64,000 bases of DNA. Origin: Escherichia coli. Lineage in GTDB: Bacteria > Pseudomonadota > Gammaproteobacteria > Enterobacterales > Enterobacteriaceae. Shown one piece after another: positions 2,345 through 54,215 of this stretch. The stretch lies in assembly GCF_003334815.1 (NCBI RefSeq), contig NZ_QOWO01000016.1, one strand, 5' to 3'. Positions within the stretch are counted from its first letter, which is position 1, and each line of letters opens with the position of its first letter. The translations under genes and the position numbers were made by a program. Below the pieces are notes generated by a model. It had not been told where the DNA came from, searched no databases, and saw nothing but the letters and a program-made list of their open reading frames with translations.

Positions 2345-2613
2345 TGAAAGAGCTTGAGTTAAAGAAACCGATTACTGCTCATGGCGAGACACTCTCCGTA
2401 CTGGAGTTTGATGAACCCACCGGGAAGGACGTCCGCGAGCTGGGGTATCCCTACCAGATGAATCAGGATGAGTCAGTCAGACTTCTGGCGCATGTGGTGT
2501 CGAAATACATTGTGCGGCTGGCGAAAGTGCCGCAAAGCTCTGTCGACCAGATGTCTCCGGCAGACCTGAATGCAGCGGCGTGGCTTGTGGCCGGTTTTTT
2601 CCTCCAGGCCTGA
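2344..2613 (+). CDS. tail assembly chaperone, with probable -1 frameshift extension to 2762
   Basis: 89-aa ORF between tube and tape measure; U UUU UUC slippery run at 2595-2601; -1 frame ORF 2580..2762 overlaps. Confidence 0.6.
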   Translation: MKELELKKPITAHGETLSVLEFDEPTGKDVRELGYPYQMNQDESVRLLAHVVSKYIVRLAKVPQSSVDQMSPADLNAAAWLVAGFFLQA

Positions 2614-2754
2614 CGGCTGAATACCTCACTGATCGCTTCTTTGACTGCGCCAGCTACTGGCGCATTAATCCTTTCGAATTGCTGAATATGCCGATCAGTG
2701 AAATTCCCTTGCTGGTCAGTCAGGCAAACAGGATAGAGCAGGAGAAACGCACAC

Positions 2755-4590
2755 ATGGCTGAATTTGAGCTTAAGGCGTTGATCACCGGTGTCGACAGGC
2801 TTTCTCCCGCGCTGTCGAAAATGCAAAAGAAAATCCGGGGATTTAAACGCCAGGCGGAAGAAGCGTCACAGGGGGGGCTGGCGCTTGGTGGCGGACTGGC
2901 AGCGGGTCTGACGCTTTCCCTGAAATCTTATGCCGATCAGGAAAACGCTGCCACCGGGCTGAAAGTCGCCATGATGGATGCGAACGGCGAGGTTGGAAAG
3001 CGCTTTCAGGACATCAATAAACTGGCTATTGGCCTGGGTAACCAGCTACCCGGTACAACGGCTGATTTCCAGAACATGATGCAGATGCTGGTGCGTCAGG
3101 GGATCCCGGCAGAAAACATTCTTGGCGGTGTGGGTAAAGCGACAGCTTATCTTGCGGTACAACTGAAAAAAACACCGGAAGCGGCTGCCGAGTTTGCCGC
3201 AAAGATGCAGGATGCTACCGGAACGGCGTCAGAAGACATGATGGGGCTGTTCGACACAATTCAGAAGGCGTTTTATCTGGGCGTTGACGATACCAACATG
3301 TTGTCCTTCTTCACTAAAACCAGCTCTGTTCTGAAGATGGTGAACAAGGACGGTCTTCAGGCTGCACAGAGCCTTGCCCCCATCAGCGTCATGATGGATC
3401 AGATGGGGATGAACGGGGAGTCGGCAGGTAACGCCCTGCGAAAAGTTATCCAGTCCGGATTAAGCGTTAAGAAAATCAGGGACGTCAATAAAATCATGGC
3501 CCGCCAGAAACTCGGGGTACAGCTCGATTTTACTGACGGCAAAGGGAGTTTTGGCGGTCTTGATAACATGTTCAGGCAACTGGCAAAGCTGCGAAAACTG
3601 ACCGACGTTAAACGAACTGGTGTACTTAAGGCAATATTTGGTGATGATGCTGAAACCCTTCAGGTGGTCAATGCGCTGATCGATAAAGGAAAGGATGGTT
3701 ACGATCAGATCCAGCAGAAGATGAATAAACAGGCCAGCCTGAATAAACGTGTTCAGGCACAGCTTGGTACGCTGTCCAACCTGTGGGAGGCAATGACGGG
3801 GACCGCAACTAACGGTCTTGCAGCTATTGGCGGCGCATTTTCTGGTGACGCTAAAAATATCACGCAATGGCTGGGGGAGTTGGGGGAAAAATTCACGAAG
3901 TTTGCGGATGAAAATCCCCGGGTTATTCGCGGCGTCGTCGGGCTTGCTGCCGGTCTTGCGATTCTGAAACTGGGATTGATGGGCGTGGGCGGTGCCATCA
4001 GTATTGTCAGCAGGATCATGTCGATGACGCCGATTGGCATGATTGCGACGGCGATAGCCCTGGCTGCGGGATTAATTATCACTAACTGGGATGTTGTCGG
4101 ACCTTATTTCAAGAAGCTCTGGGAAACCATTGGTCCTTATTTTGAGGCTGGCTGGGAACTCCTTAAGAAAGTTTTTGCCTGGTCGCCGCTGGGGATGGTG
4201 ATCAATAACTGGGGGCCGGTTGTTAAGTGGTTTCAGGATATGTGGGACAAGCTGAAGCCAATTATTGAGTGGTTTACCGACAGTTCCGGTGACACGGTCG
4301 ATGCCATTAACTCTGCGCAGTGGGGCGCGGGTGCTTATGATGCTTATGGGACGGGAATACCGGCGCGGGGATACACACCTTATCCGGCGGTAGAGCCGGC
4401 TCAGTCAAACAACGCCTCCGATGCCACAGGCCCGAATCCCTTCATGATCAACAAAGCTTCTGCGCCAAAAGTTGATGGTGAGATCAAGGTCTCTTTTGTG
4501 AATTCGCCTCCGGGTATGCGGGTTATGGAAACGCGATCCAGCGGTTTTGATGTCAGCCATGATGTTGGCTATACGCGCTTTGGCAGGTAA
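2755..4590 (+). CDS. tail tape measure protein
   Basis: 611-aa ORF, Ala/Gly-rich, hydrophobic stretch near residues 380-440, position after chaperone. Confidence 0.75.
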   Translation: MAEFELKALITGVDRLSPALSKMQKKIRGFKRQAEEASQGGLALGGGLAAGLTLSLKSYADQENAATGLKVAMMDANGEVGKRFQDINKLAIGLGNQLPGTTADFQNMMQMLVRQGIPAENILGGVGKATAYLAVQLKKTPEAAAEFAAKMQDATGTASEDMMGLFDTIQKAFYLGVDDTNMLSFFTKTSSVLKMVNKDGLQAAQSLAPISVMMDQMGMNGESAGNALRKVIQSGLSVKKIRDVNKIMARQKLGVQLDFTDGKGSFGGLDNMFRQLAKLRKLTDVKRTGVLKAIFGDDAETLQVVNALIDKGKDGYDQIQQKMNKQASLNKRVQAQLGTLSNLWEAMTGTATNGLAAIGGAFSGDAKNITQWLGELGEKFTKFADENPRVIRGVVGLAAGLAILKLGLMGVGGAISIVSRIMSMTPIGMIATAIALAAGLIITNWDVVGPYFKKLWETIGPYFEAGWELLKKVFAWSPLGMVINNWGPVVKWFQDMWDKLKPIIEWFTDSSGDTVDAINSAQWGAGAYDAYGTGIPARGYTPYPAVEPAQSNNASDATGPNPFMINKASAPKVDGEIKVSFVNSPPGMRVMETRSSGFDVSHDVGYTRFGR

Positions 4591-19307: not shown

Positions 19308-20381
19308 GTGGGGCAGCGAATACCTGTAACGCTTGGTAATATTGCGCCGTTGTCGCTAAGGCCGTTCCAGCCTGGACGAATAGCTCTGGTGTGCGAAGGC
19401 GGCGGACAGCGTGGAATTTTCACGGCTGGCGTGCTGGATGAGTTTATGCGCGCGCAGTTTAATCCTTTCGATCTTTATCTCGGCACATCTGCCGGGGCGC
19501 AGAACCTCTCGGCGTTTATCTGCAATCAGCCCGGTTACGCGCGCAAAGTCATCATGCGCTATACCACAAAACGCGAATTTTTCGATCCATTGCGCTTTGT
19601 CCGTGGAGGAAATCTTATCGATCTCGACTGGCTGGTGGAGGCCACTGCAAGCCAGATGCCGTTGCAAATGGATACCGCCGCGCGGTTGTTTGACAGCGGC
19701 AAATCGTTTTATATGTGCGCCTGTCGTCAGGATGACTACGCGCCGAATTACTTTTTACCAACCAAACAAAACTGGCTGGATGTGATTCGCGCCTCCAGTG
19801 CGATACCTGGCTTTTATCGTAGCGGAGTGTCGCTGGAAGGCATTAACTACCTGGATGGCGGGATCAGTGATGCGATTCCGGTTAAAGAGGCGGCAAGGCA
19901 GGGTGCTAAAACGTTGGTCGTCATTCGCACTGTGCCGTCACAAATGTACTACACGCCGCAGTGGTTCAAACGCATGGAACGCTGGCTGGGTGACAGTAGC
20001 CTGCAGCCGCTGGTCAATCTGGTGCAGCATCATGAAACCAGCTATCGTGACATTCAGCAATTTATTGAGAAACCACCGGGCAAGCTGCGGATATTCGAAA
20101 TTTATCCACCGAAGCCATTACATAGTATCGCGCTTGGCAGTCGGATTCCGGCGCTGCGTGAAGACTATAAACTTGGGCGTTTATGCGGTCGTTATTTCCT
20201 CGCCACGGTTGGCAAGCTATTAACTGAAAAAGCGCCGCTTACCCGCCATCTGGTGCCAGTGGTGACGCCGGAATCGATTGTCATTCCGCCTGCGCCAGTC
20301 GCCAACGATACGCTGGTTGCCGAAGTGATTGACGCTCCGCAGGCGAACGACCCGACATTTAACAATGAGGATCTGGCTTGA
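19308..20381 (+). CDS. yjjU: patatin-like phospholipase family protein
   Basis: GGGQRG and GTSAG patatin motifs; GTG start as in K-12. Confidence 0.9.
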   Translation: MGQRIPVTLGNIAPLSLRPFQPGRIALVCEGGGQRGIFTAGVLDEFMRAQFNPFDLYLGTSAGAQNLSAFICNQPGYARKVIMRYTTKREFFDPLRFVRGGNLIDLDWLVEATASQMPLQMDTAARLFDSGKSFYMCACRQDDYAPNYFLPTKQNWLDVIRASSAIPGFYRSGVSLEGINYLDGGISDAIPVKEAARQGAKTLVVIRTVPSQMYYTPQWFKRMERWLGDSSLQPLVNLVQHHETSYRDIQQFIEKPPGKLRIFEIYPPKPLHSIALGSRIPALREDYKLGRLCGRYFLATVGKLLTEKAPLTRHLVPVVTPESIVIPPAPVANDTLVAEVIDAPQANDPTFNNEDLA

Positions 20382-21160
20382 TTTGCCGTTTTATCGACAC
20401 CCACTGCCATTTTGATTTCCCGCCGTTTAGTGGCGATGAAGAGGCCAGCCTGCAACGCGCGGCACAAGCGGGCGTAGGCAAGATCATTGTTCCGGCGACA
20501 GAGGCGGAAAATTTTGCCCGTGTGCAGGCGTTAGCGGAAAAATATCAACCGCTGTATGCCGCATTGGGCTTGCATCCTGGTATGTTGGAAAAACATAGCG
20601 ATGTGTCTCTTGATCAGCTACAGCAGGCGCTGGAAAGGCGTCCGGCGAAGGTGGTGGCGGTGGGGGAGATCGGTCTGGATCTCTTCGGCGACGATCCGCA
20701 ATTTGAGAGGCAGCAGTGGTTACTCGACGAACAACTGAAACTGGCGAAACGCTACGATCTGCCGGTGATCCTGCATTCACGGCGCACACACGACAAATTG
20801 GCGATGCATCTTAAACGCCACGATTTATCGCGCACTGGCGTGGTTCACGGTTTTTCCGGCAGCCTGCAACAGGCCGAGCGGTTTGTACAGTTGGGCTACA
20901 AAATCGGCGTAGGCGGTACTATCACCTATCCACGCGCCAGTAAAACCCGCGATGTCATCGCAAAATTACCGCTGGCATCGTTGTTGCTGGAAACCGACGC
21001 GCCGGATATGCCGCTCAACGGCTTTCAGGGGCAGCCTAACCGCCCGGAACAGGCTGCACGGGTGTTTGACGTGCTTTGCGAGTTGCGCCCGGAACCAGAA
21101 GATGAGATTGCCGAAGTGTTGCTTAATAATACGTATGCGGTGTTTAGCGTTCGTGGGTAG
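20378..21160 (+). CDS. yjjV: TatD-family metal-dependent hydrolase
   Basis: N-terminus MICRFIDTHCHFDF (TatD HxH motif); TTG start. Confidence 0.9.
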   Translation: MICRFIDTHCHFDFPPFSGDEEASLQRAAQAGVGKIIVPATEAENFARVQALAEKYQPLYAALGLHPGMLEKHSDVSLDQLQQALERRPAKVVAVGEIGLDLFGDDPQFERQQWLLDEQLKLAKRYDLPVILHSRRTHDKLAMHLKRHDLSRTGVVHGFSGSLQQAERFVQLGYKIGVGGTITYPRASKTRDVIAKLPLASLLLETDAPDMPLNGFQGQPNRPEQAARVFDVLCELRPEPEDEIAEVLLNNTYAVFSVRG

Positions 21161-21164
21161 TTTA

Positions 21165-21575
21165 CCCTTCGTAGGCAGCATCCGGCAGTCGGCGCATAAT
21201 GCCTGATGCGACGCTTGTCGCGTCTTATCATGCCTACAGGTTTGTGCCGAACCGTAGGCCGGATAAGGCGTTCACGCCGCATCCGGCAGTTGGCGCACAA
21301 TGCCTGATGCGACGCTTGACGCGTCTTATCATGCCTACAAGTCTGTGCCGAACCGTAGGCCGGATAAGGCGTTCAGGCCGCATCCGGCAGTTGGCGCACA
21401 ATGCCTGATGCGACGCTGACGCGTCTTATCATGCCTACAAGTCTGTGCCGAACCGTAGGCCGGATAAGGCGTTCACGCCGCATCCGGCAGTCGGCGCATA
21501 ATGCCTGATGCGACGCTTGTCGCGTCTTATCATGCCTACAAGTCTGTGCCGAACCGTAGGCCGTATCCGGCATGT
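21165..21575. repeat. REP/BIME cluster, about four tandem ~95-bp units
   Basis: Repeated gccggataaggcgttcacgccgcatccggca and gcctgatgcgacgct...gcgtcttatcatgcctaca modules. Confidence 0.85.
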
Positions 21576-22438
21576 CACAAATAGAGCGCCGGAAATATCA
21601 ACCGGCTCACCCCGCGCACCTTTAACGCATCAGCCAACGGCTCAACGTCTTCCGGCGTGGCGCTCGCCCAGCTTTGCGCCTCGCCATACACGCCGTGGGC
21701 ATGAAACGCATTCAGGCGAACCGGAACATCGCCAAGTCTCTTGATAAACGTCGCCAGCTCATCGATGTGATGCAAATAATCCACCTGGTCTGGAATTACC
21801 AGCAAACGCAGTTCCGCCAGCTTACCGCGCTCTGCCAGCAAACAGATGCTGCGCTTAATCTGCTGATTATCGCGTCCGGTTAATTGCTGATGACATTCGC
21901 TCCCCCACGCTTTGAGATCGAGCATTGCGCCGTCGCACACCGGGAGTAATTTTTCCCAGCCGGTTTCGCTCAACATACCGTTACTGTCCACCAGGCAGGT
22001 GAGGTGGCGCAGTTGCGGATCGTTTTTGATAGCAGTAAACAGCGCCACTACAAACGGCAGTTGGGTCGTGGCTTCGCCGCCGCTTACCGTTATCCCTTCA
22101 ATAAACAGCACCGCTTTGCGGACATGGCTAAGCACTTCGTCCACGCTCATGGATTGCGCCATTGGCGTGGCATGTTGCGGACACATCTTCAGGCAGGTAT
22201 CACACTGCTCGCAGACCACAGCGTTCCACAGCACTTTGCCGTCAACAATCTGCAACGCCTGATGCGGACACTGTGGCACGCACTCTCCGCAATCATTGCA
22301 GCGTCCCATCGTCCACGGATTGTGACAGTTTTTGCAGCGCAGATTGCAGCCCTGCAAAAACAGAGCCAGACGACTGCCTGGCCCGTCAACGCAGGAGAAG
22401 GGGATAATCTTACTGACTAAAGCGCATCTGCTGTTCAT
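21575..22438 (-). CDS. yjjW: glycyl-radical enzyme activating protein (radical SAM)
   Basis: Cys clusters CKNCHNP and [12 protein letters not shown]; matches K-12 YjjW. Confidence 0.9.
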
Positions 22439-48721: not shown

Positions 48722-48790
<69 letters not shown>

Positions 48791-48813
48791 CGCGTACAGG
48801 AAACACAGAAAAA

Positions 48814-48845
48814 AGCCCGCACCTGACAGTGCGGGCTTTTTTTTT
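48814..48845 (+). terminator. thr attenuator terminator
   Basis: agcccgcacctgacagtgcgggct hairpin plus T9. Confidence 0.9.
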
Positions 48846-54074: not shown

Positions 54075-54215
54075 GCCGGGTAACAATCCGGCATTCAGCG
54101 CCTGATGCGACGCTGGCGCGTCTTATCAGGCCTACGTGAATTCTGCAATATATTGAATCTGCATGCTTTTGTAGGCCGGATAAGGCGTTCACGCCGCATC
54201 CGGCATTGACTGCAA
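54075..54215. repeat. REP/BIME elements (yaaX-yaaA intergenic)
   Basis: gccggatgcggcgtgaacgccttatccggcctac motifs in inverted pair. Confidence 0.8.

Follow-up and report, generated by a model that had tools for sequence, protein, structure and literature searches.

Background

In the Gilson/Bachellier classification, as restated in PMC3333891, a BIME-2 is formed by y and z2 REPs in inverse orientation with a short S linker. Flanking linkers of the s, l or r type, tandem copies that are well conserved within each locus and a number of copies that varies between strains are further traits of the class (PMC3333891). The TnpA-REP protein of E. coli binds y REPs and cleaves y, z1 and z2 iREPs in vitro, and transposase-mediated strand exchange has been demonstrated in vitro for BIMEs (PMC3333891).

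Two arrays of this class are close to the one analysed here. REP325 of E. coli K-12, in the yjdM-yjdN spacer, has a period of 100 and 5.8 copies, and it is the element on which the Rfam family RF02564 (naRNA4) was built. According to a 2026 preprint, REP325 stabilises the upstream mRNA and attenuates read-through in a partly Rho-dependent way; the same preprint finds that, across the genome, a REP between two convergent genes goes along with higher expression of the two, and that 78 REPs are located within predicted bidirectional terminators. The second array is the K-12 element at the yjjV-yjjW junction, which a 2024 preprint names by its EcoCyc designation, REP352a-h, and describes as overlapping yjjV by 2 nt. 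In that preprint REP352 is one of eight highlighted REP regions whose exonuclease-protected 'mobilome' coverage was higher under stress from SDS or copper, a rise that came without sign of circular DNA, and it is alone among the eight in that it was not predicted by RAREFAN to be RAYT-associated. A full-text literature search for yjjW together with REP or palindrome gave no match.

Location and structure of the array

The window, i.e. the whole stretch of DNA that was analysed, comprises 64 kb of an E. coli contig (NZ_QOWO01000016.1). It contains, as convergent ORFs, yjjV on the plus strand (20378-21160, stop codon TAG at 21158-21160), annotated as a metal-dependent hydrolase, and yjjW on the minus strand (21575-22438, stop codon TGA at 21575-21577), annotated as a YjjW family glycyl-radical enzyme activase. 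Both were located from the ORF list and the RefSeq annotation, and the gene names were taken from the RefSeq annotation of the strain PA45B record, which is 100% identical over 1,501 nt; they are the same neighbours that had been named in an earlier, sequence-only reading of this DNA.

The spacer of 414 bp between these genes is filled entirely by a tandem array, for which Tandem Repeats Finder reported a single entry at 21178-21563 (period 101, 3.8 copies, 95% matches, 0% indels, score 702), the sole long-period array that the program found in the window. A repeat search gave start-to-start unit spacings of 101, 101 and 100, the units are 94–98% identical to each other, and the G+C content of the array is 59.5% versus 52% for the window. 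Base-by-base dissection set the limits of the repeat-derived sequence at 21171-21572, inside the bounds of 21165-21575 that had been proposed earlier, with 10 nt between the yjjV stop and the first REP-derived base and 2 nt between the last REP-derived base and the yjjW stop. The sequence-only reading had described a unit of about 95 bp with two REP-like palindromes, repeated about four times head to tail. The number of copies and the two palindromes stand, the latter corresponding to a 35-nt Y REP and a Z2 REP of 37–38 nt, but the unit measures 100–101 bp.

Each unit consists, in this order, of a 12-nt linker S, a 37–38-nt Z2 REP, a 16-nt linker l and a 35-nt Y REP. Unit coordinates were set explicitly base by base, and alleles were split at the 3′ end of Y for typing; 'l' serves here as a plain label for the 16-nt linker, independent of the s/l/r subtypes. 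The array contains four Z2 REPs, three full Y REPs and, at each end, one internally deleted Y of 17 nt, and the GTAG is on the plus strand in Y REPs and on the minus strand in Z2 REPs.

Read from the yjjV side, the array begins with the left terminal mini-Y GTAGGCAGCATCCGGCA (21171-21187, plus strand), i.e. a Y REP minus 18 internal nt. Unit 1 is made up of linker S GTCGGCGCATAA (21188-21199), Z2 REP 1 (21200-21237, minus strand), which has its GTAG end on the minus strand and reads as an iREP on the plus strand, linker l AGGTTTGTGCCGAACC (21238-21253) and Y REP 1 (21254-21288, plus strand), a 35-nt imperfect palindrome with GTAG ahead of it. In unit 2, linker S GTTGGCGCACAA (21289-21300) is followed by Z2 REP 2 (21301-21338, minus strand), linker l AAGTCTGTGCCGAACC (21339-21354) and Y REP 2 (21355-21389, plus strand), in which a private C>G in the loop-side stem (CAGGCC) is held in common with a three-unit allele of strain DAM. 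Unit 3 comprises linker S (21390-21401), Z2 REP 3 (21402-21438, minus strand), linker l (21439-21454) and Y REP 3 (21455-21489, plus strand); its period is 100 bp because Z2 REP 3 has a deletion of 1 nt in the loop and is 37 nt long. Unit 4 repeats linker S GTCGGCGCATAA (21490-21501), continues with Z2 REP 4 (21502-21539, minus strand) and linker l (21540-21555), and ends in the right terminal mini-Y GTAGGCCGTATCCGGCA (21556-21572, plus strand). Both terminal mini-Ys are without the same 18 internal nt, located between two GCCG direct repeats, and this deletion takes out one hairpin arm and the loop. All full Y and Z2 elements differ from the array consensus by 0–1 mismatch, with the exception of Z2 REP 3. 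When three or fewer mismatches were allowed, the full-length patterns occurred six times (Y) and three times (Z2) in the window versus not once in 100 shuffles of the window.

In predicted RNA folds of the plus strand, Y forms a hairpin of -20.9 kcal/mol (z -4.6 for Y REP 1) and Z2 one of -14.7 kcal/mol (z -5.3 for Z2 REP 2), and values for the minus strand are similar. Neighbouring elements can form long hairpins, Y-S-Z2 at -45.6 kcal/mol and Z2-l-Y at -48.4 kcal/mol, which are stabler than two separate hairpins. Compared with shuffles, the fold of the whole array has a z of about -9.9 on the plus strand and -9.3 on the minus strand. The minimum free energy folds of the whole array pair distant units, and this pairing is regarded as a thermodynamic curiosity because co-transcriptional folding should favour local hairpins.

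No intrinsic terminator (GC-rich hairpin plus T-run) was found in 21161-21574 on either strand. A sigma-70-like promoter at 21172-21200 (TAGGCA-17-CATAAT), with 9/12 matching positions, was rejected as too weak to serve as evidence. Its CATAAT is composed of the S variant GTCGGCGCATAA plus the first T of Z2, its TAGGCA comes from the left mini-Y, and the S variant GCGCACAA does not create the CATAAT hexamer.

Class membership and comparison with described arrays

The yjjV-yjjW array is a BIME-2 and the orthologue of EcoCyc REP352a-h of K-12, and as such it is already known and catalogued. It is composed of y-type and z2-type REPs, and these alternate as REP and iREP, with GTAG 5′ of an imperfect palindrome and internal mismatches in both stems. 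The REPs are joined by a short S linker of 12 nt and flanking linkers of 16 nt, in 3.8 conserved tandem copies. The location is extragenic, with the qualification that in K-12 and in single-REP alleles the GTAG of a REP overlaps the yjjV stop codon, and the number of copies is strain-variable, with 0–6 Z2 units in E. coli and 1–11 across representatives of Escherichia species. The REP/BIME nature claimed in the earlier reading is borne out by the opposite orientation of Y and Z2, the short conserved linkers and the tandem copies, which together place the array in the BIME-2 type.

REP352a-h of K-12 (MG1655, 4,614,261-4,614,679) shares with the window array the flanking genes, the Y/Z2 units, the S and l linkers, the four Z2 REPs and the truncated right-hand Y. 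It differs in its first Y REP, which has the full length and provides the stop codon of yjjV. The window instead has about 16 additional nt at the left junction, one more codon in yjjV and an internal deletion in the first Y, and its unit variants follow one another in a different order. REP325, likewise a BIME-2 and described in the literature as Y/Z2, has the same Y and Z2 REPs as the window array in nearly identical form but other S and l linker sequences, a combination that fits local expansion of each array. The settings are also different, REP325 lying between two co-directional genes of one operon and the window array between convergent genes, and of these two arrays only REP325 has been studied experimentally.

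The array also resembles REPINs, in that a Y and the inverted Z2 next to it can fold together as a single long hairpin. Unlike REPIN-RAYT systems, the array is not flanked by a RAYT gene, none being present among the flanking genes.

Three Y-S-Z2 pairs on the plus strand (21257-21335, 21358-21435 and 21458-21536, i.e. a span of 21257-21536) match the Rfam model RF02564, naRNA4, at 77.3, 76.6 and 71.6 bits versus a gathering score of 59.5, and the first, truncated unit reaches 31.5 bits, below threshold. The model also matches single BIMEs at 35634 and 40030 in the window, and a match therefore stands for membership among REP pairs, not for a function or a specific RNA gene.

Two further interpretations of the repeat were tried and rejected. 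Mechanical ORFs of 47–91 aa across the array were rejected as coding sequence because the period of 100–101 is no multiple of 3, so that the frame rotates with each unit, and because the number of units varies freely. In a CRISPR array the S and l linkers would have to be spacers, and both repeat in every unit. The correct label for the locus is thus a BIME-2 array (REP352 orthologue) and not a gene, a small RNA locus or a CRISPR-like feature. Past this correct annotation, in which naRNA4 matches from Rfam are to be read as REP membership only, the array has little significance.

Variation in unit number within E. coli

An 800-nt query made up of the two flanks only matched 5,424 of 5,426 complete E. 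coli genomes, and the span between the flanks in each record was taken as the array length. In a systematic sample of 59 records, chosen at even steps down the ranking, 0, 1, 2, 3, 4 and 5 Z2 units were present in 2, 13, 12, 8, 9 and 15 records, respectively, counts that are not population frequencies because the database is biased to laboratory and outbreak lineages. A six-unit allele was found separately in one fetched record. The earlier reading had claimed that the copy number varies between strains and had named a comparison of unit counts with other E. coli genomes as the check; the counts do differ between genomes, and the claim holds at yjjV-yjjW, with 0–5 Z2 units among the sampled records and 6 in the fetched allele.

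A second set was formed by the 60 best records of the 5,424 matches, in which the 800-nt flanks are 100% identical to those of the window. Here 1, 3, 4 and 5 Z2 units were found in 2, 1, 20 and 37 records, respectively. As the flanks are identical and the unit counts differ, the length of the array changes while the flank gains no substitution.

Minor sequence differences in S, in the loop of Z2 and in l were used to type the units. The five-unit allele of strain W5-6 reads a b c d e, and that of the window a c* d e, in which one unit has been lost by an exchange between b and c and the next Y carries the private C>G. Strain 10R has a d e. In strain DAM, a c* precedes a hybrid of d and e that crossed over within linker S; since this allele carries the private C>G of the window, it derives from a window-type allele. 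In strain SCU-306 the only unit is an a/e hybrid. The alleles of the window, 10R, DAM and SCU-306 are in-register derivatives of the five-unit allele a b c d e, and every difference among the typed alleles is an in-register event that involves whole units, as predicted by slippage or unequal homologous exchange. The sequences are compatible with slippage, RecA-dependent exchange and transposase-mediated exchange alike, and the transposase route may be counted as a candidate.

Within one flank haplotype, then, alleles of five, four, three and one units can be derived from each other, which makes the locus a clean example of how a BIME-2 changes. The array could serve as a length marker for strain typing, and its alleles are a possible natural series for testing the effect of REP number on convergent transcripts. 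The annotation of E. coli strain 107 (NZ_CP028695.1, from cattle; 2110-2299) lists yjjI, the glycyl-radical enzyme that partners yjjW, as a pseudogene with a frameshift.

Junction variants and decay at the edges

The left end of the array exists in different forms. In the K-12 type, yjjV ends in ...AACGTGCCGTAG and its stop codon TAG coincides with part of the GTAG of the first Y REP, which is full length; K-12, the single-REP alleles of HS-01 and WP9-S17-ESBL-11 and three further Escherichia species have this form. In the window type, which is also present in E. albertii and others, yjjV has one additional codon and is followed by about 16 nt that the K-12 type lacks, with a first Y that is either degraded or truncated. 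This 'type B' left junction includes a 5-bp hairpin, GGGTA-GTT-TACCC (21155-21167, plus strand), which spans the yjjV stop codon and which, by fold and junction comparison, is absent in K-12. A third left junction was seen in E. coli NCTC86, in which a yjjV of 783 nt, as in the window, is directly followed by AACC and a full Y REP; the spacer of this strain (521-745) is 225 bp long and has two Z2 units.

On the right, most E. coli have the 17-nt form of the Y next to the yjjW stop, and full-length versions occur in strain BCE-1, E. albertii and the single-REP alleles. The units at the edges thus decay while internal units stay near-identical, and concerted evolution accounts for both the decay of the edges and the homogeneity of the interior without invoking selection.

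The same junction in other species

When one genome per species was scanned with YjjW, 54 loci were obtained, and in 53 of them yjjV is convergent with yjjW. All five species-level representatives of Escherichia have a Y/Z2 array in the same orientation, with 1, 1, 2, 4 and 11 Z2 units. The longest of these arrays, in a cryptic Escherichia lineage (Escherichia sp. MOD1-EC7003, about 3230-4350), spans 1.1 kb with 11 Y/Z2 units (period 100, 93% matches), nearly twice the largest E. coli allele found.

The yjjV-yjjW spacer is also filled by a tandem REP/iREP array in Citrobacter portucalensis (2517-3033) and C. youngae (3337-3868), with 5.1–5.7 copies. Unlike that of E. coli, however, this array has a period of 84 bp and is built from Citrobacter-specific REP types, with a Z-like REP on the plus strand and an inverted Y-like REP, the opposite of the E. 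coli arrangement, and the arrays are not unit-for-unit orthologous. At its end by the yjjW stop, the C. portucalensis array has a truncated element, GTAGCCGCATCCGGCA, similar to the mini-Y of E. coli.

One or a few REPs are present at the junction in other Citrobacter species and in Salmonella arizonae. The two genes abut or overlap in about 16 loci, which belong to Phytobacter, Kosakonia, Enterobacter, Leclercia, Superficieibacter, Yokenella and others, including some Pluralibacter and some Citrobacter. In about 15 loci of Kluyvera, Pseudocitrobacter and relatives, an insertion of 1.4 kb, probably one extra gene, lies between yjjW and yjjV instead of REPs. As the genes abut elsewhere and the arrays differ by lineage, the spacer has been added in particular lineages, and REP-type elements have colonised the junction more than once. 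The E. coli alleles that go down to a single Y REP, the extension to 11 units and the approximately 16 loci elsewhere without a spacer further indicate that the array is dispensable and that its size is not obviously constrained. The scan also returned CACSKA010000015.1, titled Chryseobacterium sp. 18061, which has an Enterobacteriaceae-type YjjW (71% identity) and a YjjV in a Kluyvera-like arrangement; this contig is probably contaminated or mislabelled.

Possible roles and origin

Since yjjV and yjjW are convergent and the array fills the spacer between them, read-through of either gene would carry a run of very stable hairpins in the 3′ UTR. By analogy with REP325 and with the genome-wide data on REPs, the most likely role of the array is that of a local two-way barrier at the 3′ ends: it would shield both mRNAs from 3′-to-5′ exonucleases and would damp convergent read-through, partly via Rho. 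The number of units shifts through in-register exchange of near-identical units, by replication slippage or unequal recombination, and the exact number is probably close to neutral. The ultimate origin of the array, we infer, would lie in the spread of REPs and BIMEs by a REP-associated transposase. The explanation as a whole, i.e. a REP352-orthologous BIME-2 with in-register turnover of units, a local two-way barrier at the 3′ ends and a REP/BIME origin, is put forward with good confidence.

The array could also be a neutral or selfish repeat that occupies a permissive spot between two stop codons and is resized by recombination without consequence for the cell. The approximately 16 loci of other genera and species in which yjjV and yjjW abut or overlap, the spread of E. 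coli alleles from one Y REP to 6 units (and to 11 in a cryptic Escherichia lineage), the fairly even length classes without a preferred size and the combination of decaying edges and a homogeneous interior, expected from concerted evolution alone, are all consistent with such neutrality. On the other hand, a REP-type element is present at the junction in 5/5 Escherichia representatives, in some Citrobacter and in Salmonella arizonae; the independent 84-bp array in two Citrobacter species suggests that the site favours or benefits from such elements; and the genome-wide correlation of REPs between convergent genes with higher expression argues for an effect. A neutral array and a barrier differ solely in the effect on local expression, and neutrality stays plausible, though we regard it as doubtful. 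A further idea is that the array is a fast-switching heritable dial, in which the number of units would set the 3′ stabilisation or termination of the yjjV and yjjW-yjjI transcripts, truncated Ys would have been selected against stalling, and the junction would be a preferred BIME site; this is considered improbable. If it were true, the truncation of stop-proximal Y REPs could be selected, relieving ribosome stalling, and the different Citrobacter array would mark the convergent junction as a preferred site for BIME landing or expansion.

Gyrase-cleaved BIME-2 arrays, which were reportedly studied by Espeli and Boccard in 1997 and by Sutormin in 2018, include those of tldD-yhdP and sucC-sucB, of the same class as the window array and similar to it in length. 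If the window array were likewise a strong site of DNA gyrase binding and cleavage, it would remove positive supercoils between the convergent transcription units yjjV and yjjW, and the BIME-2 class is indeed significantly enriched in gyrase cleavage sites, independently of transcription, with a preference of gyrase for Y REPs (PMC6379681). In the same dataset, however, a 387-bp BIME-2 at 4620060-4620447, which coordinate offsets of 5,787–5,855 bp (holC-pepA, REP325) place in the yjjV-yjjW spacer, has 0 cleavage sites under four Topo-Seq conditions (ciprofloxacin, rifampicin plus ciprofloxacin, microcin B17 and oxolinic acid), a count that read mapping inside repeats may lower through loss of signal, whereas the 307-bp BIME-2 of tldD-yhdP has 35, 13, 3 and 10 sites in these conditions (PMC6379681, Table DS3). 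With its K-12 orthologue free of Topo-Seq sites, a gyrase role for the window array is disfavoured and judged very unlikely. The position of the outermost repeats next to two stop codons brings in a translational brake, by which a REP hairpin 15 nt or less from a stop codon would stall terminating ribosomes and lower the output of YjjV and YjjW. The model of a brake by stop-proximal REPs is said to originate with Liang, Rudd and Deutscher in 2015. The 15-nt rule, as summarised in PMC12306157, the REP-derived sequence 10 nt past the yjjV stop and 2 nt short of the yjjW stop, the stop codon TAG of yjjV that belongs to the GTAG of a REP in K-12 and in single-REP alleles, and the inclusion of REP352 within the 15-nt limit in the 2024 preprint all agree with this model. 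The stop-proximal REPs of the window, however, are the deleted 17-nt forms, and their folds are not significant (z -0.03 for the left one; +0.17 on the plus strand and -1.9 on the minus strand for the right one); the nearest intact hairpins, Z2 REP 1 and Z2 REP 4, lie 39 and 35 nt from the stops and so beyond the 15-nt rule, and a brake in this allele is quite unlikely. Three units pass the gathering score of RF02564, and the original study reported HU binding and in vitro DNA condensation by naRNA4 from REP325 (PMC4550694), from which one could take the units to be naRNA4-like RNA genes whose RNAs bind HU, bridge DNA cruciforms and condense the chromosome. Yet the Rfam model catches any generic Y-linker-Z2 pair, the single BIMEs at 35634 and 40030 included, and the 2026 preprint, which shares an author with the original study, finds that deletion or overexpression of REP325 leaves nucleoid volume unchanged and that contacts between REPs are not enriched, so that an architectural RNA at this locus appears extremely unlikely.

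Other elements in the window

Besides the array, REP/BIME sites are present in the window at 35634-35781, 40030-40110 and 54128-54205, each with a Y REP of 0–1 mismatch and none of them tandem. The BIMEs at 35634-35781 and 40030-40110 pass the Rfam naRNA4 threshold, and the site at 54128-54205 adjoins a match to ES036 (CssrF) that is just above threshold. The Thr operon leader was matched at 48726-48845 (122 bits) and the tpke11 sRNA family at 62625-62702 (69.6 bits); given these two elements, the window spans the point at which the E. coli chromosome map conventionally begins, with the yjj genes on one side and the thrL and dnaK region on the other.
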